Source of the DNA: Pyrinomonadaceae bacterium
GTDB taxonomy: Bacteria; Acidobacteriota; Blastocatellia; Pyrinomonadales; Pyrinomonadaceae
Direction of reading: 5' to 3'
Assembly: GCA_036824525.1 (NCBI GenBank)
Contig: DAITAB010000002.1
Coordinates: 1 to 38,430, forward strand
DNA: 38,430 bases
Shown here piece after piece: positions 8,303 through 35,341 of the stretch; within the stretch, counting starts at the first letter, position 1; each line of letters opens with the position of its first letter. The translations under genes and the position numbers were made by a program. The notes beneath the pieces were generated by a model. It made no database searches. It was not told the DNA's origin and worked only from the letters and a program-made list of their open reading frames with translations.

Positions 8303-9730
8303 ATGAAGAATTCTGCTAATCGGAAGATTCTCATCGGAGGAACATGGCGCTCTACCGATCGATGTTTTTCCGTTCGTAATCCTTACAACGGAGACTTAAT
8401 TGCAGACGTTTGCTCCGCATCGGAATCCGACATCGAAGACACAATCGCATTTGCCCAAACGGCGTCGTTAGAATTACGTGAGACGACGCGTTTCGAACTT
8501 GCGAAGGCACTTGCAAAGATTTCCGATCTTATCGAAAAGCGGAAGGATGAATTCGCCAACACAATTGTAAACGAATCGGCGAAGCCGATTTCGCTGGCGC
8601 GTGCTGAGGTCGAACGTGCCAGCCGAACCTTTCATTTCGCCGCTATCGAAGCCGAGAAATTCGTCGGCGAAATTATTCCTATCGATGCACAATCAAACGG
8701 ACGCGGAAAAACGGGTCATACGATGCAGGTTCCGCTAGGAGTCATCTTCGGAATTACGCCGTTCAACTTCCCATTGAACTTAGTTGCACACAAAATCGCC
8801 CCTGCCTTGGCTTCGAGGAACTCGATAATTATCAAGCCGAGTCCCCGAACTCCGCTCACCGCGTTATTGCTTGGCGAGATATTTCTTGAAAGCGGGCTTC
8901 CAGGAAGCGCGGTGCAGATCGTACCGATGGATGTTGCTTTGATTGACATCATTTTGCGCGATGAAAGAGTGCATATGTTGAGTTTCACAGGAAGCGCGGA
9001 AGTCGGCTGGAATCTGAAATCGCGCATCGGTCGAAAGAAACTCGCGCTGGAACTTGGCGGTAACGCGCCGGTAATTGTTGATGAGACTGCGGACTACCAA
9101 CGGTCAATTGATCAGACATTAATCGGTGCGTTTGCCTTCGCCGGACAGGTTTGCATTTCCGTTCAACGCGTTTATGTTCATCAATCCTTCGCCGATGCCT
9201 GGATGAGGGATTTTGTTTCCGGCGCGAAAATTCTTTGCAAAGGAAATCCGGCTGAGGAGACCACTAAGCTCTCGGTGATGATCGATGAACCGGCGGCAAT
9301 TCGAGCAAAGCAATGGATCGATGAAGCCATCGGTGCGGGTGCGGTACTTCTTTGCGGCGGAACGAGAGACAGTTCGTTTCTCGATGCTACGGTCCTTACA
9401 AACACTTCATCGGAAATGCGCGTTGTTTCCGAAGAAGCCTTTGCGCCCGTAGTTGTATTGGAAAAGTTTTCGCATATCGACGAAGCGTTTTCCATGGCGA
9501 ACCAAACTAAATATGGTTTGCAGTGCGGCATCTTCACGCAAAATCTAGCCAATGCGCGAAGGGCAACTGAACAGTTGGAGTTTGGAAGTGTATTGATAAA
9601 CGAGATTCCGACATTCCGCGTCGATAATATGCCTTACGGCGGAGTTAAGTCGTCCGGATTTGGTCGCGAAGGTGTTCGATACGCGATGGAAGAGATGTCT
9701 GAGAGGCGGTTAGTTGTAATGAGTGATTAA
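8303..9730 (+). CDS. NAD(P)-dependent aldehyde dehydrogenase family protein
   Basis: 475 aa. General-base motif LELGGNAP, catalytic Cys in FAGQVCISVQR, cofactor motif FTGSAEVG, and a C-terminal PYGGVKSSGFGREG. Confidence 0.9.
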   Translation: MKNSANRKILIGGTWRSTDRCFSVRNPYNGDLIADVCSASESDIEDTIAFAQTASLELRETTRFELAKALAKISDLIEKRKDEFANTIVNESAKPISLARAEVERASRTFHFAAIEAEKFVGEIIPIDAQSNGRGKTGHTMQVPLGVIFGITPFNFPLNLVAHKIAPALASRNSIIIKPSPRTPLTALLLGEIFLESGLPGSAVQIVPMDVALIDIILRDERVHMLSFTGSAEVGWNLKSRIGRKKLALELGGNAPVIVDETADYQRSIDQTLIGAFAFAGQVCISVQRVYVHQSFADAWMRDFVSGAKILCKGNPAEETTKLSVMIDEPAAIRAKQWIDEAIGAGAVLLCGGTRDSSFLDATVLTNTSSEMRVVSEEAFAPVVVLEKFSHIDEAFSMANQTKYGLQCGIFTQNLANARRATEQLEFGSVLINEIPTFRVDNMPYGGVKSSGFGREGVRYAMEEMSERRLVVMSD

Positions 9731-9761
9731 GAAGAATATCGATATTCGGGAGAGTTTAAAC

Positions 9762-12116
9762 ATGCTTCGGAAGTTTTGCATTTTAATTATTTTTTCTTGT
9801 TTTGCGCTTGTTAGCACGGATGCGAATGGTCAGACCGTAGCACCGTCGAACGGAAGTTTGCGTGTGGGCAAAATAACAAAACCTGTAATCGTGCGACGCG
9901 ATCAGAGGGGAATTCCCTATATTGAAGCGGAGAACGACGCAGATTTATATTTCGCGCAGGGATACGCGACAGCGCAGGATCGGCTCTGGCAGATGGATTT
10001 GCTTCGAAGGGTTGCTCGCGGTGAACTTGCGGAACTTTTCGGCGAGTCCGTCTTTGAGGAAGACAAGCGCTGGCGAAAGTATGGCTTCGGCTCAATAGTT
10101 CAAGAGTCTTACGCGAAACTTTCTCCGGAAATGAAGAAGTCGCTGGAATTTTATGCGCTCGGCGTAAATGAATACATCGCATCGCTCGACGAAAAATCAC
10201 TTCCGTTGGAATTTCAAATTCTCCGTTACAAGCCGACACTTTGGAAGCCAACTGATTCGCTTATCATTGGGAAGATTCTTTCTGATGCGTTGAGTTCTTC
10301 TTGGCAGTGGGACATTTCACGCGCGGCATTTGCCGATTTACCCAAAGAAGAATTCGATCAATTGTTTCCGGCGAAATCGCCGTTTGATACGCTTGTTGTC
10401 GGAAAAGATTCCACGCAGTCGCAGACGGGAACTTCAGCCTCGATCGCGCATTATGTTTCGCAGTTCGCCTCGGCTTTAGAGCGTGAAGCAAAAGTGCGTG
10501 AAGCGTCGCTCTCTCGCATCGGGCTTTATTCGGAAGACCTTGCGGTAAGTAATAATTGGGTGATTAGCGGGAAGCGCACCTTTGACGGAAAGGCGATTCT
10601 CGCCAATGATCCGCATTTGCGACCTTCCGCGCCCTCTATCTGGCACCTCGTAAATCTTGCGACTCCAAAGATGCGCGTCTCCGGAGTAACCTTTCCCGGA
10701 ACACCTGGCGTCGTTCTCGGACACAATGAATTTATAGCCTGGGGCGCGACCAATCTCGACCCCGATGTTCAGGATCTATATCTCGAAACCTTCAACGATA
10801 AGAATCAATACAAAACTCCTCGTGGTTGGGTTGAGGCGAAAATCCGCACCGAGGAAATTTCCGTCCGCAAAGGATTGCTTTCCACCGAACAGGAGAAACG
10901 CAAAATTGAAGTGGTTGAAACAAATCACGGCGTCGTCTTTTTCGAAGAAGCGGGAAAGCGTTATGCGCTTCGCTGGACCGCTCGCGATTCAAACAATGTT
11001 GAGATGTCAGCGTTTTTCAGAATCAATCGCGCGCGAAATTGGCTGGACTTTAAGAGCGCGCTCAAGAGCTACGGCGGCGCGACTCAGAATTTTGTTTTTG
11101 CGGATGTGCGCGGAAATATCGGTTATTACGGAGCTGGGAAAATACCCATACGCAAATCCGGCGGCGGAAGCATGCCGTTTGACGGAGCTAAAAATGAGGG
11201 CGAATGGATTGGATATATCCCGTTTGAGGAACTGCCCAATGCATTCAATCCCGCCGAAGGTTTCATCGTGACTGCCAATCAACGAATCGCCGGCGACAGT
11301 TACAAATACTATTTGACGAATGCTTGGTCGCCGCCGTATCGCGCACGGCGGATTCACGATCTCCTGAGCGCGAACCCCAAACAGACAATTGATACTTCGA
11401 AAGATATTCAACGAGACATATTCAACATTTCGTTCTCCGAAACTGCGCGAGAAATTCTTCGGATGAATGCAGCTTCGCCGGAAACACTGACGCAGCTTCG
11501 CGGTTGGGATGGAAAAATGTCGGCGGATTCTCGTGCCGCGCTTTTACTGTCCGAAATCAGAAACGTTTTCTTGAAGAAAATTCTCGAGGCGAAATTCGGA
11601 GTTGAACGCGCCCGACTTTATCGCTGGACTAACCAGGCAACCTTGATTGACTGGCTTATTCGCGAGCAGCCGCCCGAATGGAAGCCGGGAAAATTTGCTT
11701 CCTACAGGGAAGTTCTGATGGAGTGCGACGCGAATTCGCGCGCGAGTTTAGCAAAACGATTTGGGGATGATGATTCGAGATGGACATACGGCAACGCGAA
11801 TTCAGCTCGATTCCCGCATCCATTGGCAATCGCGCCATTGATCGGAAAGCGATTCGAGATCGCACTTTTTCCTCAAAACGGAAGCGGACTTACTCCCAAT
11901 GTCGGGGCAAGCGTTTCGATGCGACATATTTCATCGCCGGGAAATTGGGATGAAACCCGACATGGAATCGCTTTGGGCGAAAGTGGTGACCCGACGAGCG
12001 TGCATTTCTCCGATCAACTTGAAAACTGGAAAAGTGGAAATACCGGGAAGTTTCCGTTCAGTAAAAAGGCAGTTGAGTCCGCGACAGTTTCTTTGTTTAT
12101 TCTGAACCCGAAGTAG
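9762..12116 (+). CDS. Penicillin acylase family Ntn-hydrolase (acyl-homoserine-lactone/penicillin amidase-like), secreted
   Basis: Signal peptide MLRKFCILIIFSCFALVSTDANG, then RDQRGIPYIEAENDADLYFAQGYATAQDRLWQMD. The internal autoprocessing site has the nucleophile Ser in LAVSNNWVISG. GGGAGAG lies 8 nt upstream of ATG 9762. The alternative upstream ATG 9723 (track start) overlaps the ALDH stop by 8 nt. Confidence 0.9.
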   Translation: MLRKFCILIIFSCFALVSTDANGQTVAPSNGSLRVGKITKPVIVRRDQRGIPYIEAENDADLYFAQGYATAQDRLWQMDLLRRVARGELAELFGESVFEEDKRWRKYGFGSIVQESYAKLSPEMKKSLEFYALGVNEYIASLDEKSLPLEFQILRYKPTLWKPTDSLIIGKILSDALSSSWQWDISRAAFADLPKEEFDQLFPAKSPFDTLVVGKDSTQSQTGTSASIAHYVSQFASALEREAKVREASLSRIGLYSEDLAVSNNWVISGKRTFDGKAILANDPHLRPSAPSIWHLVNLATPKMRVSGVTFPGTPGVVLGHNEFIAWGATNLDPDVQDLYLETFNDKNQYKTPRGWVEAKIRTEEISVRKGLLSTEQEKRKIEVVETNHGVVFFEEAGKRYALRWTARDSNNVEMSAFFRINRARNWLDFKSALKSYGGATQNFVFADVRGNIGYYGAGKIPIRKSGGGSMPFDGAKNEGEWIGYIPFEELPNAFNPAEGFIVTANQRIAGDSYKYYLTNAWSPPYRARRIHDLLSANPKQTIDTSKDIQRDIFNISFSETAREILRMNAASPETLTQLRGWDGKMSADSRAALLLSEIRNVFLKKILEAKFGVERARLYRWTNQATLIDWLIREQPPEWKPGKFASYREVLMECDANSRASLAKRFGDDDSRWTYGNANSARFPHPLAIAPLIGKRFEIALFPQNGSGLTPNVGASVSMRHISSPGNWDETRHGIALGESGDPTSVHFSDQLENWKSGNTGKFPFSKKAVESATVSLFILNPK

Positions 12117-12670: not shown

Positions 12671-13954
12671 ATGACATTTCGAGGAAAGTTGCTTTTGGCA
12701 GTTGGTTCAATGTCGGTGGCATTGTTTGCGCTGGTAGGCGGTTGGTTGGGAACAACTGCGCAACAACCGATCAACGATGCCGGAGCACAAATGCGTATTT
12801 TCGAGAGCGTATTGCAGCATATTCAGAACGACTACGTTGATGAACCGAATCTCGAAAAGGTCCGTTCGGGAGCGCTCCGTGGTTTGGCATATGGTCTTGA
12901 TCCTTATTCCTCGTATCTTACGGCTGAGCAGGTAAAGGAATACGCTACGAAGAAGCCGACAGACTCCAATGGAATTGGTGCAGAGTTTTCGCAGGTAGCG
13001 GGATTCGTCTACGTGATTTCCGTAGTGAAGAGTTCACCGGCGGATCTGTCCGGCTTAAAAGCCGGCGACGCGATTGAATACATCGAAAACAAAGCAACGC
13101 GGGATATTTCACTTTATGATGCGCGCCAACTGCTTAATGGAGCGGCGGGCAGTCAGGTTAAGTTACGAATTTTGAGATCCGGCGCTCGTCCGCAGACGAT
13201 CGTTGTCACGCGAAATTCTTTTACGACTCCGGAACCTGCGAGCCGAATTGACTCCGCCAAAACAGGGATACTTACAATTTACAGTCTTCAAGAAGGCGAA
13301 TCCGCAATGGTTCGAACTCAACTTCAGAACTTAATGAAACAAGGCGTTCAAAAAGTTGTGGTTGATCTGCGCGGAGTTTCCGATGGTAGTTTCCAGGAGG
13401 CTGTTAACGTCGCGAATCTATTCATCAAGGATGGAACGCTCGGTCAGATTCTCGGACGCGACAAGAAGGTAATGAAGACTGCGGTTGCAGACCCGAATAA
13501 ATTTCTTTTTGATGGAAAAATCGTAGCCTTGATTGATCTTGGAACGTCCAGCAGCGGGGAAGTTGTAGCCTCTGCCATACTTGAGCGCAAACGCGGCGAG
13601 GTCGTCGGCGAAAAGAGTTTTGGAGCGGGAACTGAGCAGCAGCTATTCACGCTGCGCGGCGGCGATGGGCTTTTACTTACGGTCGCAAAATGGGCTTCAC
13701 CGACAGGAAAACCGTTCCTCGCGGATGTTAGAGATGAGTCGGGTGTGAAACCTTCAGTTGAGGTAAAACGTCCGGATTCCACCGGTCCAATTGATCCTGA
13801 AGATCTTGCTGACCAAGATTCCGAAGAGACGCCGACGCAGCCGAAAGCCACTCCAAAACCGACTCCGGCGCCGGTGAAACCTGTTCCTGATGATATTCAG
13901 TTGAAGAAGGCGCTTGAGCTCCTTCAGGATAAGGCTGCCGCTGCAAACGGATAA
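12671..13954 (+). CDS. S41 (C-terminal processing peptidase) family protein with PDZ domain; catalytic motifs degenerate
   Basis: 427 aa with an N-terminal membrane anchor/signal and a PDZ-like segment (GIGAEF...VISVVKSSPADLSGLKAGDAIEYIEN). S41 core blocks are present, but DLRGVSDGS replaces the usual DLRNNGGG and GEKSFGAGT replaces the usual TFGKG. The C-terminal tail is Pro/Thr/Lys-rich. Confidence 0.8.
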   Translation: MTFRGKLLLAVGSMSVALFALVGGWLGTTAQQPINDAGAQMRIFESVLQHIQNDYVDEPNLEKVRSGALRGLAYGLDPYSSYLTAEQVKEYATKKPTDSNGIGAEFSQVAGFVYVISVVKSSPADLSGLKAGDAIEYIENKATRDISLYDARQLLNGAAGSQVKLRILRSGARPQTIVVTRNSFTTPEPASRIDSAKTGILTIYSLQEGESAMVRTQLQNLMKQGVQKVVVDLRGVSDGSFQEAVNVANLFIKDGTLGQILGRDKKVMKTAVADPNKFLFDGKIVALIDLGTSSSGEVVASAILERKRGEVVGEKSFGAGTEQQLFTLRGGDGLLLTVAKWASPTGKPFLADVRDESGVKPSVEVKRPDSTGPIDPEDLADQDSEETPTQPKATPKPTPAPVKPVPDDIQLKKALELLQDKAAAANG

Positions 13955-14062: not shown

Positions 14063-14521
14063 ATGAATGCGGAGAATATCAACATTACGACGGCTGGTGT
14101 TGGTGACTTAGATGCCTGGTTACGGCTACGGAAATTGCTTTGGGACGATGCGAGTGACGAGGATCATCTCGCGGAAATCCATGAAGTTTTGAGCGATCCG
14201 GATTCCCAGCTCGTACTGATTGCGGTAGATGGCGATGGAACATGTGTGGGATTTTTGGAGGCGAGCATCCGTCCTTTTGTGGAGGACTGCTATTCAGATT
14301 CAGTTGGTTACTTAGAAGGTTGGTTTGTCGATCCTTCATTTCGAAAAATTGGTATCGGACGAAAACTGGTTCAAAGTGCTGAAACTTGGGCGCGATCTAG
14401 AGGCTGTAGTGAAATGGCTTCAGACGCGGAAATTGGAAATGAAGTGGGCATTCACGCACACCTCGGACTCGGATACGGCGAAACTTCGCGCTTAATTCAC
14501 TTCCGAAAGCTCTTGTCTTAA
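14063..14521 (+). CDS. GNAT acetyltransferase of the AAC(6')-I aminoglycoside N-acetyltransferase type
   Basis: 152 aa. The pattern W-LRLRKLLWDD...HLAEI...GFLEASIRPFVEDCYSDSVGYLEGWFVDPSFRKIGIGRKL...ETWARSRGCSEMASDAEIGNEVGIHAHLGLGYGET aligns block by block with my memory of AAC(6')-Iy/-Ig (LEASIR, FLEG-FV-PSFR, GC-EMASD, H--LGF-ET). Confidence 0.75.
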   Translation: MNAENINITTAGVGDLDAWLRLRKLLWDDASDEDHLAEIHEVLSDPDSQLVLIAVDGDGTCVGFLEASIRPFVEDCYSDSVGYLEGWFVDPSFRKIGIGRKLVQSAETWARSRGCSEMASDAEIGNEVGIHAHLGLGYGETSRLIHFRKLLS

Positions 14522-14533
14522 AGGAGACTGTTT

Positions 14534-15667
14534 TTGTCAGCTCGTCTATTTCAACAGACCTTTTTAACCGTTGTTTTGAGCGCTGCTCAAAGCGTGCTCG
14601 TATCATTTGCTTGCGCCCTCTCGTTGGCTGCTCAGTCTCCGTTGCCAGATTTTCCTACTCCAGTTTCATCAACCCAAATAAGCGGGAAAATTAGCGCACG
14701 TAATATCGGCGATCCGCGTACGACCGATCATTATTGGGTGTTTGAAGCAGATGCGGGTGACATATTCATCAACGTCGTTGCTGAAAATCTCACTGGCGAT
14801 GTTGACGTTTTTATGGCGGGCACTTTAAAGCCATTAACCAAACTCAAGATTTATGCTGACTCCACGGCCTTCGAAAGTGGCAGGGTGATTTACGTTCGGA
14901 AGCGGGAGCGGCTGATTTTGCGCGTCACGGGGCGCAGCCCAAATGATGATCCCGCGACATATCAAATAAAGTTTGCCGGAAGTTTTCAGGCTCTCGCCCG
15001 CGATGAGAATGCACCGGTTTTGCCGACCGTTGCGGAACGAGCGCCCAACAATAACGACGAGCCTCTCGTTGTTGCAAAGGATTCGAATAAAAAGAAGAAG
15101 AAGTCGGTCGATTCCGTAGCAGCACCTTCCGTTGATGAAGGTACGGTTATTAATTCCGAAGCTACGGAAGCAGCAGTCAACTCTGTAAAGAGCGACGCAA
15201 ATCCAACCGTCGCTTCAACCCGTTCAGAGAAGGCTCCGGAAGAACCGCCGAGAAAATTAGAAGATACGATCGGAAAGCCTGCGAAACGCAGTGGACGTAT
15301 AAATCAGTCATCGGAGGAAGTTCCCGTATTGCTTCGTCGGAAGAAAAGGGTCAACGTAGCTTCCAACAAGACGACGGAATCTACGACCACGGATGAAACG
15401 GCGCGCCCAACCTCGACAAACGAGGCGGAAAAATCCACTGATGCAAAGTCTGGCAAAGAAATTAGCCCGGCGGCGAATACCGCACCGGTTGATCCGATGG
15501 CGAACGTAAAGCTTTCGGTCGTTTTGAAAGATGGAAAAGAAATGAGTTTCGTTATGAGTAACGTTTTGCGATTTGGCGTTGAAAAGGGAACTCTAACGAT
15601 TGTAACGAAAGACGGCACCACAACTAAACACTTAATTTCAAATGTCCAGCGAGTGACGATCGAATAA
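14534..15667 (+). CDS. Secreted hypothetical protein (PPC-like N-terminal beta domain, long Lys/Ser/Thr/Glu-rich disordered linker, small C-terminal beta domain)
   Basis: TTG start preceded by AAGGAG (14521-14526, 7-nt spacing); this SD overlaps the GNAT stop codon. Signal-peptide-like N-terminus ending LSLAAQS. TTDHYWVFEADAGDIFINVVAENLTGDVDVFM resembles pre-peptidase C-terminal (PPC) domains. No other recognisable motif. Confidence 0.6.
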   Translation: MSARLFQQTFLTVVLSAAQSVLVSFACALSLAAQSPLPDFPTPVSSTQISGKISARNIGDPRTTDHYWVFEADAGDIFINVVAENLTGDVDVFMAGTLKPLTKLKIYADSTAFESGRVIYVRKRERLILRVTGRSPNDDPATYQIKFAGSFQALARDENAPVLPTVAERAPNNNDEPLVVAKDSNKKKKKSVDSVAAPSVDEGTVINSEATEAAVNSVKSDANPTVASTRSEKAPEEPPRKLEDTIGKPAKRSGRINQSSEEVPVLLRRKKRVNVASNKTTESTTTDETARPTSTNEAEKSTDAKSGKEISPAANTAPVDPMANVKLSVVLKDGKEMSFVMSNVLRFGVEKGTLTIVTKDGTTTKHLISNVQRVTIE

Positions 15668-16336: not shown

Positions 16337-16647
16337 AAAGAAAGTGTATGACGAGAAATCAGTAGCTCCGTAAACTTTTTGTTCTCAAGAAAGTTCCGAG
16401 GCATCGAAACCATGCTCCAAACTATGCATCCGGCGTGTTTTTGCCTTTCGAAAGAGATTCGACACCGGTGACTTTCACCGAAACTGTGCGGCGCAAATTT
16501 CTAAGTTAGCGACGCGGCGAAATTGATTTGCCACCGTAAAATTGTATTCTATGAAGATTGATGTGTCATTCAAAGGGAGTTTCTGCTTGCCTGATTTTCG
16601 AATGAAAAAATGGCTGAACCTTCGATTTACTCGAAACCAATAAATTG

Positions 16648-17547
16648 ATGGAAAACGTCACGGAAAAGATTGAAGGCAAGATCGCAACGAGCGGTCGAAA
16701 AAAAATATTCGCTTATGCGGAGCTGACGAAGCCGCGAATTGCGCTCATGCTCGTGATCACATCCGCCGCAGGATTTTATCTCGCCTCGCATGACCGATTC
16801 GACGTCTCGCGTTTTCTTTATTCGATGATCGGGATAGCGCTCCTCGCTTTTGGCGTCTCTACTCTAAATCAGTATCTTGAGCGTGAAACGGATTCCCTAA
16901 TGGAGCGAACCGCGCCGCGCCCTTTGCCAACAAAAAGGCTCCATAAGACCGAAGCGTTGATTTTTGGAATCGCGCTCACAGTCATCGCGGAAATCATTTT
17001 ATTTTTCATGGTCAATCCTTTGACCGCATTGATGGGAGTGATCGTCATCGTCGGCTATGTGTTGGTCTATACTCCGCTAAAAACCCGTACGACGATATCT
17101 ACAGCAATTGGCGCAATACCAGGCGCAATGCCGCCGCTGATGGGTTGGACCGCAGCGGCAAATGAAATTACTATCGGTGCCTGGATTCTCTTCGCCATAC
17201 TTTATCTTTGGCAATTTCCTCATTTTCTCGCGATTGCATGGATGTATCGCGACCAATATGAACGCGCAGGAATTCTCATGCTGCCGGTAGTTGAACCGCA
17301 GGGAACTTTAACCGCACGCCAAATCGTTTTATTCACCGTAATGTTGATTCCGATTAGTTTGGCGCCGTTTTTTTTTGAAGTAGCCGGCGTCTATTATTTG
17401 ATATCTTCGATGCTCCTGGGCGGTTGGTTATTATTTGCCAGCATTCAGGTCGCACGAACCAAGACCAATGAAAGCGCGCGAAGACTTCTGCTCGTTTCCG
17501 TAATCTACTTGCCTTTACTTCTTCTCGCGATGGTCGCGAATAGCTAA
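16648..17547 (+). CDS. ctaB: Protoheme IX farnesyltransferase (heme O synthase)
   Basis: Polytopic UbiA-family protein with YAELTKPRIALMLVITSAAG, NQYLERETDSLMERT (Asp-rich motif) and YTPLKTRT. I prefer ATG 16648, one codon inside the TTG track start. Confidence 0.9.
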   Translation: MENVTEKIEGKIATSGRKKIFAYAELTKPRIALMLVITSAAGFYLASHDRFDVSRFLYSMIGIALLAFGVSTLNQYLERETDSLMERTAPRPLPTKRLHKTEALIFGIALTVIAEIILFFMVNPLTALMGVIVIVGYVLVYTPLKTRTTISTAIGAIPGAMPPLMGWTAAANEITIGAWILFAILYLWQFPHFLAIAWMYRDQYERAGILMLPVVEPQGTLTARQIVLFTVMLIPISLAPFFFEVAGVYYLISSMLLGGWLLFASIQVARTKTNESARRLLLVSVIYLPLLLLAMVANS

Positions 17548-17555
17548 AAGATTTT

Positions 17556-18257
17556 ATGGCGTTAATTCAGAATTCAGAGGCTCTGGGTGAACAAAAGGGC
17601 TCCGCGACCAAAACCTCGTCCATCGGAAGCGGAAATCAAAACGGCTCATCGCCTGGGAAGAAAAATGGCGAAGGAGAATCTCACGATGATTCAACATTAT
17701 TCTCCGGGCATAAGCTGCGCGTACTGATGATCACGACTCTGATTATTGTCCTGATGACGTTCGGCGCACTCGTTGGTGCATTTTTGGTGATTGCGTCTAA
17801 CCGTCCGCTGGAGTGGCGTCCATTCGAACTTCCGGTTCAGCTTTGGCTTAGTACTGCAATTTTGTTGGCGAGCAGTCTTGCGTTTTACATCGGCAAGAAA
17901 AAGCTGTTTGAAAGGAACGAGAAGTCCGCACACAATTGGTTTCGTATTGCTGTGGCGCTCGGAATAGCGTTCCTCATTTCCCAAATTTGGGCGTGGATCG
18001 CCTTGTATCAAATGGGAATATTTCTCGCGAGCAATCCATTTGCAGGATTCTTTTATGTCTTCACCGCGGTTCACGGATTTCACGTCGTCGGTGGTATCGG
18101 CGGGCTGGCGTATCTTGTAACTAAAACGCGAGAAAACTCGCGCAACGAGTCGATTTGGAATGCGAGAAAGGACCTATCCGCAGTAGCTGGATGGTACTGG
18201 CACCTTATGGATATTCTTTGGATAATTTTATTTCTTCTTCTCGGTTTCTGGCAATGA
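17556..18257 (+). CDS. Heme-copper (cytochrome c) oxidase subunit III family protein
   Basis: 233 aa and multi-TM, with FTAVHGFHVVGG and the C-terminal WYWHLMDILWIILFLL motif typical of subunit III. The N-terminal extension is hydrophilic and Gly/Ser-rich. Confidence 0.85.
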   Translation: MALIQNSEALGEQKGSATKTSSIGSGNQNGSSPGKKNGEGESHDDSTLFSGHKLRVLMITTLIIVLMTFGALVGAFLVIASNRPLEWRPFELPVQLWLSTAILLASSLAFYIGKKKLFERNEKSAHNWFRIAVALGIAFLISQIWAWIALYQMGIFLASNPFAGFFYVFTAVHGFHVVGGIGGLAYLVTKTRENSRNESIWNARKDLSAVAGWYWHLMDILWIILFLLLGFWQ

Positions 18258-18288: not shown

Positions 18289-18732
18289 ATGGATATCTTG
18301 AAGATTTTTCCCCACCTGAATGCGATGCTCAATTTACTGAGTACGGTATTTCTCGTTGCGGGATTTTTTAATATCCGGAGACAGCGGATTAGCATCCACC
18401 GAACTTTCATGCTTTCCGCTGCGATTACTTCCTGTTTCTTCTTGTTCAGCTACGTTACGTTTCACACTCTTAGATCACTAACTTTCGGAATAGGTCCGAC
18501 GCGATTTACCGGGCAGGGATTGATACGCCCGATCTACTTCACGATTCTTACAACTCACACCATTCTCGCAACGATCATCGCTCCCTTCGTGGTCATAACG
18601 CTTTGGCGTGGCATAAAGGGACGATATGAATCCCACAAAAAATTAGCCCGGCTCGTATTCCCGATTTGGCTTTATGTTTCGTTAACCGGTGTAATCGTTT
18701 ATCTAATTCTTTACCAATTTTATCCATCGTAA
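18289..18732 (+). CDS. DUF420 family membrane protein (cytochrome oxidase-associated, CtaM/YozB-like)
   Basis: 147 aa with four TM segments. FPHLNAMLNLLSTVFLVAG...IHRTFMLSA...HTILATIIAP fits my memory of DUF420, and its position after oxidase genes is typical. Confidence 0.75.
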   Translation: MDILKIFPHLNAMLNLLSTVFLVAGFFNIRRQRISIHRTFMLSAAITSCFFLFSYVTFHTLRSLTFGIGPTRFTGQGLIRPIYFTILTTHTILATIIAPFVVITLWRGIKGRYESHKKLARLVFPIWLYVSLTGVIVYLILYQFYPS

Positions 18733-18739
18733 AATTCGC

Positions 18740-18768
18740 TTGAATTTCCGGTTTTCGTGTGTTACCGT
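18740..18768 (+). promoter_or_regulatory. Sigma70-like promoter candidate for the riboswitch RNA
   Basis: TTGAAT (18740-18745), a 17-nt spacer, then TACCGT (18763-18768, which keeps T1, A2 and T6). It starts 8 nt after the DUF420 stop and would place a TSS a few nt before the proposed P1 at 18783. Pattern match only. Confidence 0.3.
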
Positions 18769-18782
18769 TCAGGTGTTGAAAA

Positions 18783-18924
18783 GTTGTCGCCGAAGGCGTT
18801 TCATTTGAAACGACCACGGGGGAACCAGCGTTGAGCGAGAAATCGCGAGACAGGGGCGCAGTGTCGTGAAGACACGGGAAACTTCTTGCTTCCTAGCCCG
18901 TCAGCTAACCTCGTAGGCTATGGC
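18783..18924 (+). promoter_or_regulatory. c-di-AMP riboswitch aptamer (ydaO-yuaA motif, Rfam RF00379-like)
   Basis: Matches recalled ydaO-type aptamers block by block. P1 is GUUGUCGCC (18783-91) / GGCUAUGGC (18916-24). GCCGAA lies at 18789-94, followed by a hairpin at 18795-18815. ACGGGGGAACC is at 18816-26 (T. tengcongensis: ACGGAGGAACC). A variable GNRA hairpin GCGA-GAAA-UCGC is at 18835-46. AGGGGCGCA (18852-60) is followed by the hairpin GUGUC-GUGAA-GACAC (18861-75). The hallmark CCCGUCAGCUAACCUCGUAGGC is at 18897-18918 (B. subtilis ydaO: CCCGACAGCUAACCUCGUAAGC). Confidence 0.7.
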
Positions 18925-18954
18925 CAAGAAGGACACGAAAAAGTTTAGCCATCA

Positions 18955-18989
18955 GGCGCGATTTCGTAAACTTCGCGCCTTTTATTTTT
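18955..18989 (+). terminator. Intrinsic terminator (likely riboswitch expression platform)
   Basis: Stem GGCGCGA (18955-61) / TCGCGCC (18973-79), followed by TTTTATTTTT. It lies 30 nt after the aptamer. Confidence 0.7.
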
Positions 18990-19023
18990 CAACGTATCCG
19001 AAGAGACAGTCTTCTCAAAGACG

Positions 19024-19063
19024 AGAAGTTCCGCATCTGAAAAGGTGCGGAACTTCTTTTTTT
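19024..19063. terminator. Strong hairpin terminator, T-tract on plus strand; possibly bidirectional
   Basis: Perfect 12-bp stem AGAAGTTCCGCA (19024-35) / TGCGGAACTTCT (19046-57), then T6-7 on the plus strand. On the minus strand it is followed by CGTCTTTG, a weaker tract, and it sits about 140 nt downstream of the S9 peptidase stop. Confidence 0.65.
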
Positions 19064-19201
19064 AGCGACTAGTTATAAGTGGTTAAACTTTTTGCGGAAT
19101 CCGCGCTGTTGTCCCCTGTGAATCTGTTTCCATTCTTAAACTAAAGCAAACTCGAGAGGAGAACCTTTCTCAAAATCAAATTGTTTCGGGTGAAAATCTA
19201 A

Positions 19202-21274
19202 TTACGGTTTCAGATGTTTTCCAAACCATCCGAGAACTTCTTTATACCAGTAGATAGAATTTTGCGGCTTCAATATCCAGTGTCCTTCATCAGGAAAATA
19301 AACGAATCTGGATTCGATGTTCTGGCGTTGTAGAGCCGTGAAGAGTTGAAGACCTTCGCCGACCGGAACGCGATAGTCCAGTTCGCCATGAGTAACCAGA
19401 GTTGGAGTCTTGAAATTCTTCGCGAATCGATGCGGCGACCAGCGGGTATAATTCACAGGATTTTCCCAAGGCATTCCCTTGAACTCCCAATCAACGAACC
19501 AAAGTTCTTCGGTCGCGCCGGACATACTCTCCAAATTGTAAACTCCCGCATGCGAGTGAAGCGCAGCAAATTTAAAACGTGGGTCAGTGTTGTGTCCTAA
19601 AATCCAATTGACCATATATCCGCCGTAACTTGCACCCGCGGCGCCAATTCTGTTTCGATCGATATTTGGATTTGTGTCCAATACTTTTGCGACGCCATTC
19701 ATTATGTCCGTGTATGCCTTTCCTCCCCAATCACCCGATATTTCATTCACGAATTTCTGTCCGTAGCCGACAGATCCCCGCGGATTCGGTAAAAATACGA
19801 TATAACCCGCGTTTGCAAAAATTTGCGGATTCCACCGATATCCCCAACTATCATTGAAAGCGCTTTGCGGTCCTCCGTGAATGATAACGAGGAGCGGGTA
19901 CTTTTTATTGGCATCGTAATTCGCAGGCTTAACGATGAAACCGTGAATCGTGCGATTAAGTGCGCCTTTCCATTCGACTTCCTCAGCCTTCTTCAAATCC
20001 TGAGTAAACGGTCTTCCGTGAGCAACGCTATTTATCGAGGTTACGCTTGTCCTAAAGTTTCCGCTCTTTATTGTTCCATCAACATTGGCGCGAAATATTT
20101 CCGCTGGAGACTGAAACGAACTTGAGGAAAAAATAAATGATTTTCCGTCAGGGGTTATACGTAAATCCGCATTGTAGCCATCGTTGATTAGCGTTTTCAC
20201 GTCTGAGCCGCCGGCGGTTTTTCGTGCGCTCTCAACCGCAACCGAAAAAATTGGCGATTGTCCTCGTTGAAGTGCTGTCAGGTAAACCCTTTTATTGTCG
20301 GGTGAAATAACAAATTCTTCCGCTTGAAGGTCAAAGCCGGCGGTGAGCTCGATCGTGCTGCCGGTCGCTCGCTCGAAGCGCATAATTCGCCAACGATCCG
20401 CCTCAAATCCCGCGGTCGCCTGCGAGCGGTAAATTATGTACTTTCCATCACTCGTGTAAGCCGGCGAAACATCGTAGCCCCTATTCGTTGCGGTGATGTT
20501 ACGGGCAGTTCCGCCTTCAACCGACACGATAAACAAATCGCTGTTTGTCGAGATCGCCTCGATTTTGTCTGGATTTTTCAGGAATGCAATTTCTTTCGAA
20601 TCCGGAGAAAACGCATAATCTACAGAGCTCGAAGCCGCATAAGGAGGCGAATCAAAATCACCGGGTGTTAAATCGCGTGCTACTCCACCGGAACTCTCTA
20701 CGATAAAGAGATGAGTTCGCTTTCGATCTCGCCATTCGACCCAATGTCGAAAAAGGAGCCTTTCGCTGGCTTTTGCCTGAACTTTGTTTCCTTCCACTTT
20801 TTCATCTTCGGCTTTGTTGCAATCATCGGTCGAACATTCGGGATAAACGTCAGAAACGAATGCGATTTGTTTTCCATCAGGTGACCAAACCGGTCCCGAG
20901 GCACCGGTCGAGATCGACGTAATCTGTTGTCGTTCACCGCCGCCCGAATTCATCGTCCAAATTTGTCCGCCGGTAGTAAACGCTATTTTGCTCCCATCGG
21001 GCGACCAACGCGGTGAGCTACTCGATTTTGCTCCGTCCGTAATTTGTCTTGGCGTTCCACCTTCGATCGCTTGAACGTAAATTTGCGAAATAACTTTATT
21101 GTCTGTGAGCTTTACGTCGCCGATAACAAACGCGATCTGTTTTCCATCGGGCGAAACCTGCGGATCACTTACACGACGCACCTTCATTAACTCGTCTGCA
21201 GTAATGCCGCTTTGGGCAAACGAATAAGTAAACAGTAGAAGAATAATAATAGGAAGAGACTTGATGCTTCGCAT
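19202..21274 (-). CDS. S9 family serine peptidase (prolyl oligopeptidase/acylaminoacyl-peptidase type) with N-terminal TolB-like beta-propeller
   Basis: 690 aa with signal peptide MRSIKSLPIIILLLFTYSFAQS. Repeated SPDGKQIAF / WSPDGS propeller repeats. Nucleophile elbow GASYGGYM, Asp in HGELDYRVP, His in FPDEGHWI. Confidence 0.9.
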   Translation of the reverse strand: MRSIKSLPIIILLLFTYSFAQSGITADELMKVRRVSDPQVSPDGKQIAFVIGDVKLTDNKVISQIYVQAIEGGTPRQITDGAKSSSSPRWSPDGSKIAFTTGGQIWTMNSGGGERQQITSISTGASGPVWSPDGKQIAFVSDVYPECSTDDCNKAEDEKVEGNKVQAKASERLLFRHWVEWRDRKRTHLFIVESSGGVARDLTPGDFDSPPYAASSSVDYAFSPDSKEIAFLKNPDKIEAISTNSDLFIVSVEGGTARNITATNRGYDVSPAYTSDGKYIIYRSQATAGFEADRWRIMRFERATGSTIELTAGFDLQAEEFVISPDNKRVYLTALQRGQSPIFSVAVESARKTAGGSDVKTLINDGYNADLRITPDGKSFIFSSSSFQSPAEIFRANVDGTIKSGNFRTSVTSINSVAHGRPFTQDLKKAEEVEWKGALNRTIHGFIVKPANYDANKKYPLLVIIHGGPQSAFNDSWGYRWNPQIFANAGYIVFLPNPRGSVGYGQKFVNEISGDWGGKAYTDIMNGVAKVLDTNPNIDRNRIGAAGASYGGYMVNWILGHNTDPRFKFAALHSHAGVYNLESMSGATEELWFVDWEFKGMPWENPVNYTRWSPHRFAKNFKTPTLVTHGELDYRVPVGEGLQLFTALQRQNIESRFVYFPDEGHWILKPQNSIYWYKEVLGWFGKHLKP

Positions 21275-21643: not shown

Positions 21644-23377
21644 TTATTGGTCAATTTGTTTGACTGTCATCTTCTTTGACAAAGCCCGCGCGCCTTCCAA
21701 TGCCAACTGTTTTGCTTGCGGAAGTAATTCGACCGCCTGTTTCAACTGATTATCGTATTCATTGAAAACCTGATAGGAAGTCGTAGCGCCGTAAGCCGCG
21801 GTGACAAATTCCGAACGAAGCGTCCGCTGAATGAATTCGCGCTCACCGTCAATCTGCGAACCGGGAATTTTATACTCCTTAATCGCAAACTTTTTAAAGT
21901 TCTGAAAAAGCTCCTCAGTAATTGGAAAGTCTTTTTGAGTAATGTCGTGATCGAACTTTATCGGCGCGTCAATCTTTAGATTTTCAAAACCTTTCGTTCG
22001 ACCCACCGAAGTATCGAGTGCGAAAGCGAAAATGGGATCAGTTAATTTTTCCTGAATGCGAGCACGCTCAGCAGTGATAGTTGCCGGTCTTATTCCAAAA
22101 TCCGGCGCGATTCCACCGCCTCCATATACTAGACGTCCGGAAGCAGTTTTGCTTTCGGCGCCTTTTGGAGTCGACGGCTGATTTTCGTCGCGCAGCGTTC
22201 CGCCATTGCTGTAATAGTTGTAAAGATCGCCATTCGAGTAATCGCGTTGGATTAATCGACCGGCGGGTGTTTCATATTTTGCAATCGTCAACAACAGCAT
22301 CGAGTTGTATTCGAGTTGAAACGGATTTTGCACGAGACCTTTTCCGAAGGTTGTTTCGCCGACGATAAGCGCTCGATCGTGGTCCTGCAGTGCGCCGGCA
22401 AGAATTTCCGAGGCAGATGCGGTATAGCGATTAACCAGCACAACAATCGGAGTTTCATCCGGATTAGGATTCTCCGCGCGGAATACCCCAAAGGAATCTT
22501 CGAGCCTTCCTTTTTGAGTGAAAATCGTTTGACCTCGCGAAAGAAATGTATTTGCTACACGATACGCCTGACTGACCAGTCCTCCACCGTTGTTGCGGAG
22601 ATCCAGAATTAAGTTTTGCATTCCCTGGCGTTTTAACGCTTGCATCGATTCGCGAAATTCCATGTAGGTTGTTTGGTTGAATCCACCCGTCATGGCGATA
22701 TAACCGACTCCGGGTCGAATAATATACGCCTCGGGAATTGACGGCTGCGGAACGGCATCGCGAATAATATCGACGGTTTCGCGTGCGCCAGTTGCGAAAC
22801 GCTCAATGGTAATCTTTGCCAAGGTTCCTCTGGGACCGCGAAGAAAACTTCTGACTTCGGAGAATCTCTTGCCGACCATCGAAGTTCCATTAACCTCTAC
22901 AATTCGATCTCCATAACGAAGTCCTGCACGATGGGCGGGCGAGCCATCAAAGGTGGCTTTGATAAATGTAGCTAATACTTTCCCGTCCGCATCCCGAAGA
23001 TCACCGATCGTCGCGCCGATACCAAAATATTGTGAACTTTGGTCATTTCGAAACTGCTCCGCTTCTTTTGCATCGAAATAGTTGGAATGCGGGTCCAGCG
23101 TGTGGAGCATTCCGTCTATCGATGACTTAAAAATCTCGTTGTAATCAATCCTCGATCCATCAACGTGATTTTGCTGAATAAGTGTTAGCGCCTCGGCGAC
23201 ATTTTGGTCAATGGTTTCGATCGTAGTTGGCGGTCTTTTGGCGACGGTTTGAGAAATATCGCTTTGCGACTTAACCGGTTTAGGCGTACGTGGAGCGATT
23301 TGCGAGAATCCCGTGGAAACAAAACCGAGCGCAATAATTCCTGACAACATTAACGACATCATCGATTTCTTAAACAT
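21644..23377 (-). CDS. S41 family C-terminal processing (tail-specific) peptidase with PDZ domain, canonical catalytic motifs
   Basis: Canonical blocks DLRNNGGGLV, VNRYTASASEILAGAL and GETTFGKGLVQ. PDZ segment GIGATIGDL...ATFDGSPAHRAGLRYGDRIVEVNG. I prefer ATG 23377 (MFKKSMMSLMLSGIIALGFVSTGFS, signal-like); the track start 23467 adds 30 residues with no signal character. Confidence 0.85.
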   Translation of the reverse strand: MFKKSMMSLMLSGIIALGFVSTGFSQIAPRTPKPVKSQSDISQTVAKRPPTTIETIDQNVAEALTLIQQNHVDGSRIDYNEIFKSSIDGMLHTLDPHSNYFDAKEAEQFRNDQSSQYFGIGATIGDLRDADGKVLATFIKATFDGSPAHRAGLRYGDRIVEVNGTSMVGKRFSEVRSFLRGPRGTLAKITIERFATGARETVDIIRDAVPQPSIPEAYIIRPGVGYIAMTGGFNQTTYMEFRESMQALKRQGMQNLILDLRNNGGGLVSQAYRVANTFLSRGQTIFTQKGRLEDSFGVFRAENPNPDETPIVVLVNRYTASASEILAGALQDHDRALIVGETTFGKGLVQNPFQLEYNSMLLLTIAKYETPAGRLIQRDYSNGDLYNYYSNGGTLRDENQPSTPKGAESKTASGRLVYGGGGIAPDFGIRPATITAERARIQEKLTDPIFAFALDTSVGRTKGFENLKIDAPIKFDHDITQKDFPITEELFQNFKKFAIKEYKIPGSQIDGEREFIQRTLRSEFVTAAYGATTSYQVFNEYDNQLKQAVELLPQAKQLALEGARALSKKMTVKQIDQ

Positions 23378-23510
23378 TATTCCGAACATTTCTCCGTAGG
23401 CGGGAAGCCTCATAATTCTTGGTATAGTAACATTTGTTTGAGGCAAAGGCGACGAAAAGAGTTGCACGAACGCTTTGATTTATCGCAGACTCATTGGCGA
23501 ACGGCTACGC

Positions 23511-24521
23511 ATGAATTCACGCTTATTAGAAGTCCATAATCTACGAACGCATTTCCCCACCCGCGCCGGATTGGTGCGCGCGGTTGATGACGTAAGTTTC
23601 CACGTAAGCGAAGGCGAGCTTCTTGGTCTCGTCGGAGAGTCGGGATGCGGAAAATCCATTACTGCGCTTTCCGTGATGCGGCTGATTTCTTCTCCGGGCA
23701 AAATTGTCGGCGGATCCATTAAATTCAAGGGTGAAGAGTTAACAAACGTTTCTAACGAACGCATGCGCGAGATTCGAGGCAATGACATTGCGATGATCTT
23801 TCAGGATCCGATGACATCTCTGAATCCTGTTTACACAGTCGGCGAACAAATCGCCGAGGCGCTTCGTCTGCATAGAAAGCTCGACACGAATTCCGCCCGT
23901 GAAGCCGCGATCGCATCGATGAAGGAAGTTTCAATTCCTGATGCTGCTCGGCGCTTTGATGATTACCCGCACCAGCTCTCGGGTGGAATGCGGCAGCGCG
24001 TGATGATCGCAATGGCGCTTGCCTGCGATCCCGAATTGCTCATCGCCGATGAACCGACGACTGCGCTCGACGTAACTATCCAGGCACAGATTCTCGAGCT
24101 GTTAAATGAGCTCCGAAAAACGCGAAAACTCGCGGTGCTTTTGATTACTCATGATCTTGGCGTCGTCGCGGAAGTGGCTGATCGGGTGTGTGTGATGTAT
24201 ACGGGAAAGATCGTCGAGGAAGCACCGGTAAAAGAAATTTTCTCGCAGCCACGACATCCATACACTCAAGGTCTTCTGAGATCAGTTCCGAAGATGCGTG
24301 AGTTCGGCATTGAGAAATCCGTTCGGCTTCAGACGATTGAGGGAACTGTTCCGAGTGCCGCGACATTGCCCGCAGGATGTCATTTTGCGCCAAGATGTAT
24401 TCACAAAATGACGGCGTGCGAATTAGAGGAGATCCCCTTGCTTGATATAAACGATGAAGTCAAAGTGCGCTGCATCCTCTATGAGGGCGAGCATAATCGC
24501 CGGGTCGCCGCAAATTCCTGA
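23511..24521 (+). CDS. oppD: Oligopeptide/dipeptide-type ABC transporter ATP-binding protein (OppD/DppD-like)
   Basis: Walker A GESGCGKS, signature LSGGMRQR, Walker [13 protein letters not shown], and the Opp-type C-terminal Cys-containing extension ([10 protein letters not shown]). I prefer ATG 23511 ([11 protein letters not shown]) over the TTG track start 23475. Confidence 0.9.
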
Positions 24522-24542
24522 TCTTCTGAAGTTATTACTTAT

Positions 24543-25544
24543 ATGAATCTCGGAACCGCGATCTCAACCGAAAATTCCACGCTCGTGCGCGTACACGAGC
24601 TCGTGAAGCATTTTCCCGTTGAGGGAAGCAATGATGTCGTTAGGGCGGTCGACGGTGTTTCATTCGACATATTGAGAGGCGAAACGTTGGGACTCGTGGG
24701 TGAATCCGGCTGCGGCAAGTCCACGGTCGGGCGCTGTCTTATACGTTTACTCGAACCAACCAGCGGGGAAGTGTGGTTTGAGAATGTCGAAGTGTTGCAT
24801 CTCGATAAATGGAATCTGCGGAAACTCCGTAGTGAAATGCAGATAATTTTTCAAGATCCGTACGCGAGTTTGAATCCGCGTATGAACATTCTTTCGATAA
24901 TCGGAGAACCGCTGGCGATACATGGAATTGGAAGTAAGTCGGATCGCAAAGAGCGCGTCGGCGAACTTTTGAAAAAAGTCGGACTCGATCCGGATTTTAT
25001 GTTTCGCTATCCCCATGAATTCTCCGGTGGTCAACGACAGCGACTCGGTATCGCCCGCGCTCTGGCACTCAATCCAAAACTCATAATTGCCGATGAACCG
25101 GTTTCCGCATTGGACGTATCGGTTCAGGCTCAGGTCGTGAATTTGCTTCAAGACCTGCAAAGCGAATTCGGTCTTACGTATCTTTTTATCTCCCACGGGC
25201 TCGCGGTTGTCGAGCACATATCGCAGCGCGTCGCGGTAATGTATCTCGGAAAAATGGTCGAGATCGCGGATTCGCGCGCGCTTTATGAGAACCCGCTTCA
25301 CCCATACACGAAGGCATTGCTCTCAGCGATTCCAATTCCTGACCCGACGCGAAAGCGCGACCGAATCGTTTTGCAAGGCGACGTACCAACGCCGATCAAT
25401 CCGCCATCAGGTTGCAGGTTTCGAACGCGTTGTAACTTCGCGACCGAAGAGTGCGCGATGGTAATTCCGGAGCTTCGGCAAATCGCCGAAGGGCATTTTT
25501 CGGCGTGTATCAAAACACCAGGTTATGATCAGGGAAATACATAA
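24543..25544 (+). CDS. oppF: Oligopeptide/dipeptide-type ABC transporter ATP-binding protein (OppF/DppF-like)
   Basis: Walker [10 protein letters not shown], signature FSGGQRQR, Walker [13 protein letters not shown], and C-terminal [12 protein letters not shown]...[10 protein letters not shown]. Confidence 0.9.
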
Positions 25545-32853: not shown

Positions 32854-32872
32854 CCGAGCGAACGAGCAAGAG

Positions 32873-34723: not shown

Positions 34724-34795
34724 GTTTCTGTAGCGTAGATTTTTTTTTGTGAACTCTGCCTCCGACTCCAAAGTTGCAGAATACTTTTTGAGAAT

Positions 34796-35317: not shown

Positions 35318-35341
35318 TATTCTTTTCTGGATCGACATTTT

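Follow-up and report, generated by a model that had tools for sequence, protein, structure and literature searches.

A predicted noncoding RNA with a c-di-AMP riboswitch aptamer and a conserved tail at the 3' end of a heme-copper oxidase assembly operon in Blastocatellia

The stretch of DNA analyzed here, hereafter the window, comprises 38,430 nucleotides (nt) of a Pyrinomonadaceae bacterium (contig DAITAB010000002.1, positions 1 to 38,430), and the element in question is a predicted RNA of approximately 290 nt (18774-19065, +) that contains an aptamer for c-di-AMP (cyclic diadenosine monophosphate) and lies directly behind a heme-copper oxidase assembly operon, ctaB-cox3-DUF420. The genes of this operon encode heme o synthase (16645-17547, +), which scored 295 bits with TIGR01473, where the cut-off is 210, a cox subunit III-like protein (17556-18257, +; family match) and a DUF420 protein (18289-18732, +; Pfam PF04238, 1e-39), the last of which is the conserved left neighbor of the RNA. 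Downstream of the RNA, the window contains convergent S9 and S41 peptidase genes.

The Rfam covariance-model scan revealed that positions 18778-18935 (+) match the c-di-AMP (ydaO-type) riboswitch family RF00379; the score of 58.9 bits exceeds the gathering threshold of 38, and the E-value is 2.6e-11. The match covered model positions 1-134 of 134 and is far beyond chance; the sole further Rfam match across the 38-kb window was one tRNA. An original prediction, drawn from the letters of the window, had placed an orphan ydaO-type riboswitch at this site, and all of the aptamer blocks that it named were present. It had further described a promoter just after the DUF420 stop codon, two successive terminators, the lack of a downstream open reading frame (ORF) and an S9 peptidase gene on the opposite strand, and these elements were also found. 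In particular, the promoter begins 8 nt past the stop codon (18730-32) and consists of a -35-like hexamer, TTGAAT (18740-18745, +; a conserved alignment column), a 17-nt spacer and an extended -10-like element, TG-n-TACCGT (TG-t-TACCGT at 18760-18768, +), although it was absent from the output of a generic promoter scan. The first terminator-like hairpin, T1 (18954-18989, +), reads as a G+C-rich stem of 7-8 base pairs (bp; 18954/55-61 with 18973-79/80) with an 11-nt loop, followed by UUUUAUUUUU at 18980-89; it was missed by the terminator scan because the loop limit of the scanner is 8 nt. For the second terminator, T2 (19023-19065, +), the scanner gave 16 pairs from 19023 in a hairpin at 19023-19058 with a T run to 19063; A-rich sequence borders this 16-bp stem on the 5' side, and a U tail follows it. 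No ATG occurs in 18990-19201, and the next gene (19202-21274, -) encodes an S9 (Dpp5-like) peptidase by family match. The proposed closing helix P1 (18783-91 with 18916-24) is possible in the window in its 9-bp form, with 8 of 9 pairs including wobbles, but the relatives conserve only 4 bp. As drawn by Rfam, P1 pairs CGCC (18788-91) with GGCU (18916-19) and includes one non-standard pair. The original observation therefore held throughout. While the aptamer, the promoter and the terminators had been recognized, the long-range helix P0, the small hairpin SL3, the 12-mer module, the linkage to the operon and the divergence of the window copy, all described below, had been missed.

To place this element among its relatives, a DUF420 protein scan of a genome collection was used; it yielded 80 loci (designated by L numbers), mostly from metagenome-assembled genomes of Pyrinomonadaceae and other Blastocatellia (Acidobacteriota). 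RF00379 matches of 66-83 bits were found directly 3' of DUF420 and on the same strand in 30 of the 38 closest loci. A total of 54 related loci from Pyrinomonadaceae and Blastocatellia genomes and metagenomes carry the aptamer, and all of them outscore the window copy; L006, for example, reaches 81 bits. Among the carriers are L002 (contig JAWKHL010000001.1, 2.5 Mb) and L007 (contig CAVTYF010000001.1, 4.5 Mb). Every relative conserves the 130 nt 3' of the aptamer. In alignments A1, A2 and A3, which comprised 20, 31 and 54 such units, respectively, the units share one order of parts: the promoter; UGUUGAAAA; the aptamer; an AAGAAG/AAGGAG box; a middle region ending in GUGCUUC; UUUCAAC(A/G); a short hairpin; an invariant 12-mer; an A-rich linker; and the terminator. 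Every copy has the promoter, UGUUGAAA, AAGAAG, GCUUC, UUUCAAC, the 12-mer and T2. In more distant DUF420 loci, no riboswitch was found by motif search, nor by an Rfam scan of 20 such loci. Several RNA-less Pyrinomonadaceae (L032, L033, L035, L037, L039, L046 and L058) have a co-directional gene approximately 20-150 nt after DUF420; this gene encodes a conserved membrane protein with the motif ...LTWY.TWFGR.LSD..I..YL.DEK.PRH.QHAL... and sits at the place of the RNA.

The link between tail and aptamer was also evident from a metagenome scan keyed on the tail alone (TTCAAC-N8-24-GTCTTCTCAAAG), which returned at least 120 stretches. Among the matches listed, approximately 28 were followed by an A-rich linker and a GTTCCGC-type terminator, and all of these with enough upstream sequence bear the aptamer, with scores of 66-80 bits; the other approximately 90 listed matches had neither aptamer nor terminator and represent chance matches. 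As judged by comparative sequence, the RNA is a real, conserved noncoding unit that is kept in more than 50 related soil Acidobacteria. One of the approximately 28 matches with linker and terminator, L190, is a metagenome contig of 5239 nt that represents the window's own sequence over cox3, DUF420, the RNA and the S9 gene, with 100% and 99% protein identity and an identical RNA, which indicates that the organism was assembled independently in a public metagenome.

The promoter architecture was common to all 54 aligned units and can be written as cTTGnnn, approximately 17 nt and (TG)n-TAnnnT. The TAnnnT element was present in 54 of 54 units, 2-6 nt (mostly 4-6) ahead of TGTTGAAAA at the predicted RNA start, and TTGnnn was found 16-19 nt 5' of the -10 element in 51 of 54; the T, G, T and A columns of the extended -10 element were invariant in alignment A1. 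The TACCGT of the window is the weakest -10 element of the family, the relatives having TATATT or TATTAT. No terminator was called between the DUF420 stop codon and the RNA, where 8 nt separate the stop codon from the -35 element, and the RNA therefore also forms the 3' end of the ctaB-cox3-DUF420 transcript. Two routes of synthesis are expected for it, one starting at its own promoter and the other by transcription of the whole operon, and its predicted layout is that of a small RNA of the 3' untranslated region (UTR) type with an internal sigma-70-type promoter. The 3' boundary of the predicted RNA, as of the whole unit in alignment A3, is the U tail of T2.

In the 54-sequence alignment, the core blocks of the aptamer were invariant, and two of its hairpins each covaried at 5 of 5 pairs; P1 was kept by the relatives as a helix of 4 bp, and the longer P1 of the window was not conserved. 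By score, core nucleotides and covarying helices, the aptamer is a member of RF00379, and c-di-AMP binding is predicted from this membership. Additionally, RNAalifold revealed a long-range helix, P0, in which UGUUGAAA pairs with UUUCAAC(A/G) approximately 210 nt further 3', so that the aptamer and the middle hairpin are enclosed. In the window, the 5' strand of P0, UGUUGAAAA (18774-18782, +), is placed where the RNA is predicted to start and is invariant or nearly so among the 54 sequences, and the 3' strand is UUUCAACG (18987-18994, +). The helix was paired in 94.9% of alignment cells and was almost invariant; L001 had the one compensatory double change, several G-U changes were seen besides, and its median pairing probability was 0.91 when each full-length RNA was folded singly. 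P0 is thus a supported, if not proven, element of the predicted fold. When P0, the aptamer helices and T2 were specified together, 96.4% of cells were paired and 20 pairs were changed on both sides, and this structure beat all 500 shuffles and all slid controls. The check for covariation in homologous loci that had been suggested along with the original prediction was thereby borne out for the aptamer helices and for T2.

Between the aptamer and the 3' strand of P0, single-sequence folds predicted a middle hairpin, M (18927-18974, +), closed by GAAG (18928-31) and CUUC (18971-74). In the window, M had a minimum free energy of -13.1 kcal/mol and a z-score of -3.1. A hairpin closed by GAAG and CUUC was formed in 50 of 54 homologues, and in L022, L027 and L178 it was retained despite an unrelated inner sequence. 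RNAalifold gave no consensus for M on the MAFFT alignment, and it is the per-sequence folds only that argue for this predicted hairpin. M and T1 overlap at 18955-18974 and are predicted to exclude each other. When the 290-nt RNA of the window was folded without constraint, M was formed, the 3' arm of T1 was sequestered by the aptamer core and T1 was absent, whereas T1 was formed when the aptamer was masked in imitation of the bound ligand.

The tail of the RNA begins with the predicted hairpin SL3 (19000-19014, +; single-sequence folds), which is GAAGA-GACAG-UCUUC in the window and AGAC-AUCCR-GUCU in most relatives; its stem is kept through other solutions in L100, L115 and L162. The 12-mer GUCUUCUCAAAG (19009-19020, +; alignment), which we propose as the effector (seed) of the RNA, did not differ in any of the 55 units or of 3 truncated tails. 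It is pyrimidine-rich and lies between SL3 and T2, which on the predicted structure is the usual place of a small-RNA seed. The terminator T2 was conserved in every copy, and 7 of its 12 pairs covaried in 54 sequences. The convergent genes of the relatives end with their stop codons right beside T2 (in L006, for example, the ORF ends at 1155 and T2 at 1156); together with the A-rich 5' flank and the U-rich 3' flank, this suggests that T2 is probably bidirectional, and it probably also ends the operon and the convergent gene. A permissive scan of the tail (18925-19210) against Rfam gave Thr_leader as its best match, with 22.6 bits against a threshold of 55, which we regard as a terminator-like chance match.

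The conserved parts of the RNA did not behave as coding sequence. No reading frame was conserved within the RNA among the relatives, and the 12-mer showed no third-position variation, with a spacing to the adjoining blocks that is not a multiple of 3. The mechanical ORF list contained one ORF of 50 codons (18920-19072), whose ATG lies within the 3' strand of P1. A small protein from this ORF was considered and rejected: it had no family match, the relatives stop after 2-29 codons, their frames differ and the block spacings are non-multiples of 3.

The linkage between the RNA and the operon was found to be tight. In every unit whose upstream sequence was long enough, L158 excepted, a DUF420 gene ends approximately 300-410 nt (636 nt in L007) before the 12-mer. 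In the units from the tail scan the distance is approximately 300-390 nt, even where the DUF420 protein is only 34-41% identical to that of the window. Two DUF420 subtypes, which are 40-48% identical to each other, precede nearly identical RNAs and have only their last approximately 25 residues in common. The subtypes were compared in L112, L143, L199, L157, L117 and L158 on the one side and L013, L016, L030, L002 and the window on the other. The common last residues suggest recombination with a breakpoint in the 3' end of DUF420, so that the gene end and the RNA travel together. In L158 (oriented 1874-4500), a 2.6-kb insertion separates DUF420 from the RNA promoter, and both the promoter and the RNA are intact. 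The inserted genes lie on the opposite strand and encode an extracytoplasmic function (ECF) sigma factor, a DUF4190 protein, an unknown protein and an alpha/beta hydrolase, and the insertion is flanked by a direct duplication of approximately 26 nt of the DUF420 3' end. On the right-hand side, the next gene varied: where convergent, it encodes an M1 peptidase (most loci), a methyltransferase (L003) or an S9 peptidase (the window and L019). In L004, L007, L018 and L020, a co-directional gene for an FG-GAP/cohesin protein starts 50-90 nt past T2. A comparison of synteny had likewise been suggested with the original prediction, and it revealed a constant DUF420 upstream and a varied gene downstream.

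With respect to the wider surroundings, family scans revealed no c-di-AMP cyclase or phosphodiesterase and no K+ or osmolyte transporter encoded in the window. The neighborhood is rich in processing or secreted hydrolases (12671-13954, 19202-21274, 21644-23467 and 9723-12116), comprising two S41 C-terminal processing peptidases, the S9/Dpp5-like peptidase and a member of the penicillin-amidase family; an M1 peptidase is found near the RNA in L002 and other relatives, and two oligopeptide-type ABC ATPase genes are located at 23475-25544. At 14063-14521 (+), the window encodes a GNAT protein of 152 residues that matches NF043067 (AAC_6p_group_E, aminoglycoside 6'-N-acetyltransferase) with 149.6 bits against a curated cut-off of 140, a resistance-type gene in an apparent soil acidobacterial chromosome. 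Further downstream (32263-37003, +) is an FHA cluster encoding an FHA protein, a Ser/Thr kinase with a zinc ribbon and FHA domain, an RDD protein and an FHA-GAF-SpoIIE (PP2C) phosphatase.

From these features, we tentatively propose, at somewhat less than even confidence, that the element is a riboswitch-containing small RNA of approximately 290 nt that shares its terminator with the operon, that c-di-AMP controls synthesis of the tail through T1, and that this tail is a trans-acting one. With c-di-AMP bound to the folded aptamer, M would yield to T1 (18954-18989), and transcription would stop after approximately 215 nt to give a short, tail-less RNA. At low c-di-AMP, transcription would read through to T2, P0 would close and shield the 5' end, and the tail would be exposed between SL3 and T2. 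The OFF direction in this scheme is assumed from the reported c-di-AMP riboswitches, which are described as 5' leaders and OFF switches (PMC11963983), and the two folds of the window RNA match this logic. The tail would then act on other mRNAs, most simply by pairing with purine-rich, Shine-Dalgarno-like GAGAAGAC or GGAG sites, and a complementary target would be expected to have the core CUUUGAGAAG or GAGAAGAC at its ribosome-binding site. In this manner, the c-di-AMP level would be converted into the abundance of a base-pairing regulator. The stand-alone, ligand-binding small RNA that was one of the readings offered with the original prediction is the one favored by the comparative data.

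A search for targets of the tail (19009-19027) was performed in the window. The best of 28 gene starts was that of the ORF 14534-15667, where 9 + 7 bp form over the Shine-Dalgarno sequence (14497-14536, +) with -21.7 kcal/mol; the product has 377 residues, looks secreted and has no family match. An internal duplex site at window position 10033 reached -23.5 kcal/mol. Both nearby candidates, the ribosome-binding site of ORF 14534 and the site at 10033, were treated as chance, given the shuffled tails (up to -21.2 kcal/mol) and the L125 orthologue considered next.

Several results weigh against the proposed mechanism. With regard to targets, shuffled tails reached -16 to -21.2 kcal/mol in the window, so that the ORF 14534 site is barely better; the one orthologue of this ORF, in L125, has no pairing site; and the complement of the 12-mer (with up to 2 mismatches) did not recur in 750 kb of related loci. 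With regard to the switch, the predicted accessibility of the 12-mer was the same with the aptamer free or masked. RNAalifold paired the AGAAG box with either copy of CUUC, which was tested as a ligand-dependent masking of the 12-mer; since AGAAG and CUUC are both invariant, covariation cannot decide on it. A switch helix between the 3' strand of P1 and the segment after GCUUC appeared to fit by eye and in folds, yet it was not supported, giving -4.7 kcal/mol versus -4.5 kcal/mol for shuffled 9-mers. In the model-fitted alignment, M was paired in 77.8% of cells with little covariation. A U-rich tract is present at the place of T1 in only approximately 23 of 54 units (L004 is one that lacks it), and L022 and L027 are without most of the middle region, which together indicate that T1-type termination cannot be a general mechanism. 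The window copy itself has the lowest Rfam score of the family and is its most divergent member. Its position 18859 is C, whereas A stands there in the Rfam consensus and in at least 90% of the family (the window has GGGGCGCAG where the family and Rfam consensus is GGGGyGAAg); in L115, the closest RNA relative of the window copy, the nucleotide is T. This replacement of a conserved A and the lowest score make c-di-AMP binding by the window copy less certain. Finally, the ends of the RNA are inferred from the predicted promoter and terminator, as are the two isoforms, and tight operon linkage is not required of a purely trans-acting RNA.

This last point leads to an alternative that we consider unlikely but still worth weighing, namely that the element acts in cis in the 3' UTR of the ctaB-cox3-DUF420 mRNA. 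Here, c-di-AMP would alter the 3' structure or processing through P0, M/T1 and T2 and hence the stability or termination of the oxidase-assembly mRNA, and respiration would be coupled to c-di-AMP status. Such a role is consistent with the presence of DUF420 directly upstream in every informative unit but L158, across subtypes of 40-48% identity, with the 8 nt before the -35 element that leave no room for a terminator, with a right-hand neighbor that is not conserved, and with the different co-directional gene at this place in the RNA-less relatives. However, a full promoter is found in 54 of 54 units with the 5' strand of P0 exactly at the predicted start, and an element of the UTR only would not need a promoter; in L158, the RNA and its promoter are intact 2.6 kb from the operon and behind opposite-strand genes. 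The conserved promoter and the L158 insertion argue that a cis-acting 3' UTR is not the sole role of the RNA. The 12-mer also has no evident role in a stability element, and we know of no precedent for a riboswitch in a 3' UTR. It is distinctly unlikely, in our view, that the RNA serves as a buffer or sponge for c-di-AMP, that is, as an abundant stand-alone aptamer RNA whose tail contributes nothing but stability, through the terminator and the shielding of the 5' end by P0. This function would suit a riboswitch RNA that stands alone, has its own promoter and contains no ORF, each c-di-AMP aptamer binds two ligands (PMC11963983), merRNA offers a precedent (PMC3627812), and no target for the tail was found. 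A sponge would account for a stand-alone aptamer but leaves the invariant tail unexplained: in 55 copies the 12-nt block never varies, although the stems beside it covary, which suggests a partner that recognizes this sequence rather than a role in stability alone. In addition, the poor -10 element of the window (TACCGT) does not suggest massive expression.

That the sequence-specific partner is a protein has, by analogy, a small chance: the long isoform would display SL3 and the 12-mer as a site for an RNA-binding or regulatory protein, in the manner of the RNAs EutX and Rli55 considered below, and c-di-AMP would set the titration. The same anatomy of an aptamer, an optional early terminator and a conserved 3' module would fit this function as well as base pairing. 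A strictly invariant short motif beside a hairpin may be typical of protein sites, a chaperone, for example Hfq, could bind to the A-rich (ARN-like) linker and U tail, and the lack of an RNA target is consistent with it. Against this, no candidate protein is encoded nearby, as the flanks consist of oxidase-assembly genes and peptidases, and none of the known protein-binding RNAs in Rfam resembles the motif; the idea is a purely inferential one. Classical control of a downstream coding sequence or small ORF, or gating of antisense transcription into the S9 peptidase gene as had been suggested originally, appears very improbable. The known c-di-AMP riboswitches are indeed 5' leaders (PMC11963983), the 50-codon ORF (18920-19072) is present in the window, and the FG-GAP gene lies 50-90 nt past T2 in L004, L007, L018 and L020. 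Yet all copies have a strong and conserved T2 that covaries; the next gene is mostly convergent and of differing families (M1 peptidase, S9 peptidase and methyltransferase), being on the same strand as the RNA in only four loci, which speaks against the antisense gating; and the small ORF is unconserved in frame and length, with no codon periodicity in the conserved blocks. A decaying relic of a rearrangement, the third of the original readings, is hardly credible and, for the family as a whole, refuted. It could call on the window copy, with its lowest score of 58.9 bits, its non-standard P1 pair, its C at a conserved A and its weak -10 element, but this copy keeps every conserved block, and 54 other copies, all above its score, occupy the same position with compensatory changes in covarying helices and invariant blocks, although the flanking proteins are only 34-69% identical. 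The lack of a conserved ORF and the variety of the neighbors disfavor classical cis control, a small protein, antisense gating and a relic alike.

Full-text searches (small RNA, trans-acting, orphan, Acidobacteria) revealed no description of a stand-alone c-di-AMP/ydaO riboswitch RNA, and none was found in Rfam. It is conceivable, though we are inclined to doubt it, that the present element is the first case in which a second messenger directly controls how much of a base-pairing small RNA is made or how active it is, with a c-di-AMP aptamer fused to an invariant CU-rich seed, its own promoter and a position at the 3' end of a heme-copper oxidase assembly operon. A family of more than 50 copies that has this aptamer inside a noncoding RNA with its own invariant tail would extend riboswitch-controlled noncoding RNAs, so far known for S-adenosylmethionine (SAM) and vitamin B12, to a second messenger. 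If the proposed trans-acting mechanism is true, it would link c-di-AMP (K+/osmotic) signaling and respiration to the post-transcriptional control of distant genes in Blastocatellia. The RNA suggests an unexpected tie between c-di-AMP and a terminal-oxidase assembly operon and would offer an entry point to c-di-AMP signaling in the Acidobacteria, an abundant and poorly studied soil group. The case is directly testable, as it involves a short RNA, a known ligand and a 12-nt motif, and the cultured genus Aridibacter appears to carry the RNA (L036 is labeled as Aridibacter famidurans).

Upon comparison with known systems, we found similarities to several types of regulatory RNA, with clear differences in each case. 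DapZ and MicL of enterobacteria are small RNAs that are derived from 3' UTRs, with an internal promoter and without a riboswitch. The predicted RNA resembles them as an RNA gene at the 3' end of an mRNA that uses the terminator of that mRNA, has its own promoter and carries a single-stranded seed before the terminator; in contrast, it contains a riboswitch, and its promoter lies past the stop codon and not inside the coding sequence. SreA and SreB of Listeria are terminated SAM riboswitch leaders of real genes that remain cis-regulators and also act in trans. They share with the present RNA the proposed base pairing of a riboswitch-derived RNA with other mRNAs, whereas a regulated gene is missing here, and the sequence proposed to pair is part of a conserved, dedicated tail outside the aptamer. 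EutX of Enterococcus and Rli55 of Listeria are B12-riboswitch noncoding RNAs in which early termination decides on a downstream module that titrates an ANTAR regulator. In sequence, the present RNA has the features of this type, namely its own promoter and terminator, no ORF and a conserved module past the riboswitch terminator; the riboswitch likewise lies 5' in a stand-alone noncoding RNA, and the proposed two-isoform logic of T1 and T2 is the same. The differences are that the ligand here is a second messenger, that the effector module has no ANTAR-type hairpins and that early termination is not evident in approximately half of the family.

Among riboswitches for cyclic dinucleotides, a comparable case is merRNA of Bdellovibrio bacteriovorus, a noncoding RNA with a riboswitch for cyclic diguanosine monophosphate that was defined by massive expression in RNA-seq and proposed to be a sponge (PMC3627812). 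Both RNAs are cyclic-dinucleotide riboswitches in the form of a noncoding RNA, have no conserved downstream ORF and occur in one lineage only; for merRNA, however, no conserved effector motif was described (PMC3627812), while the RNA reported here, known from sequence alone, has a 12-nt invariant tail and a helix that closes its 5' and 3' parts. Compared with the classical c-di-AMP (ydaO/kimA-type) riboswitches of RF00379, the aptamer is the same and of full length, with the core blocks, the pseudoknot, P1 and the covarying peripheral helices, and in the window and approximately 40% of the relatives it is followed by a hairpin and U tract, as in transcriptional OFF switches. The classical riboswitches usually control genes for K+ transport, osmolytes and the cell wall (PMC11963983). 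In contrast, the Blastocatellia RNA is not a 5' leader, is followed by no ORF and ends in a constitutive-looking terminator; it adds a noncoding module and a long-range helix to its 5' end, and it is located at the 3' end of an operon, beside heme-copper oxidase assembly and peptidase genes. The aptamer family is a known one, as are riboswitch-containing noncoding RNAs; apparently new is the overall architecture, in which an oxidase-assembly operon is followed by aptamer, closing helix, invariant tail and terminator.

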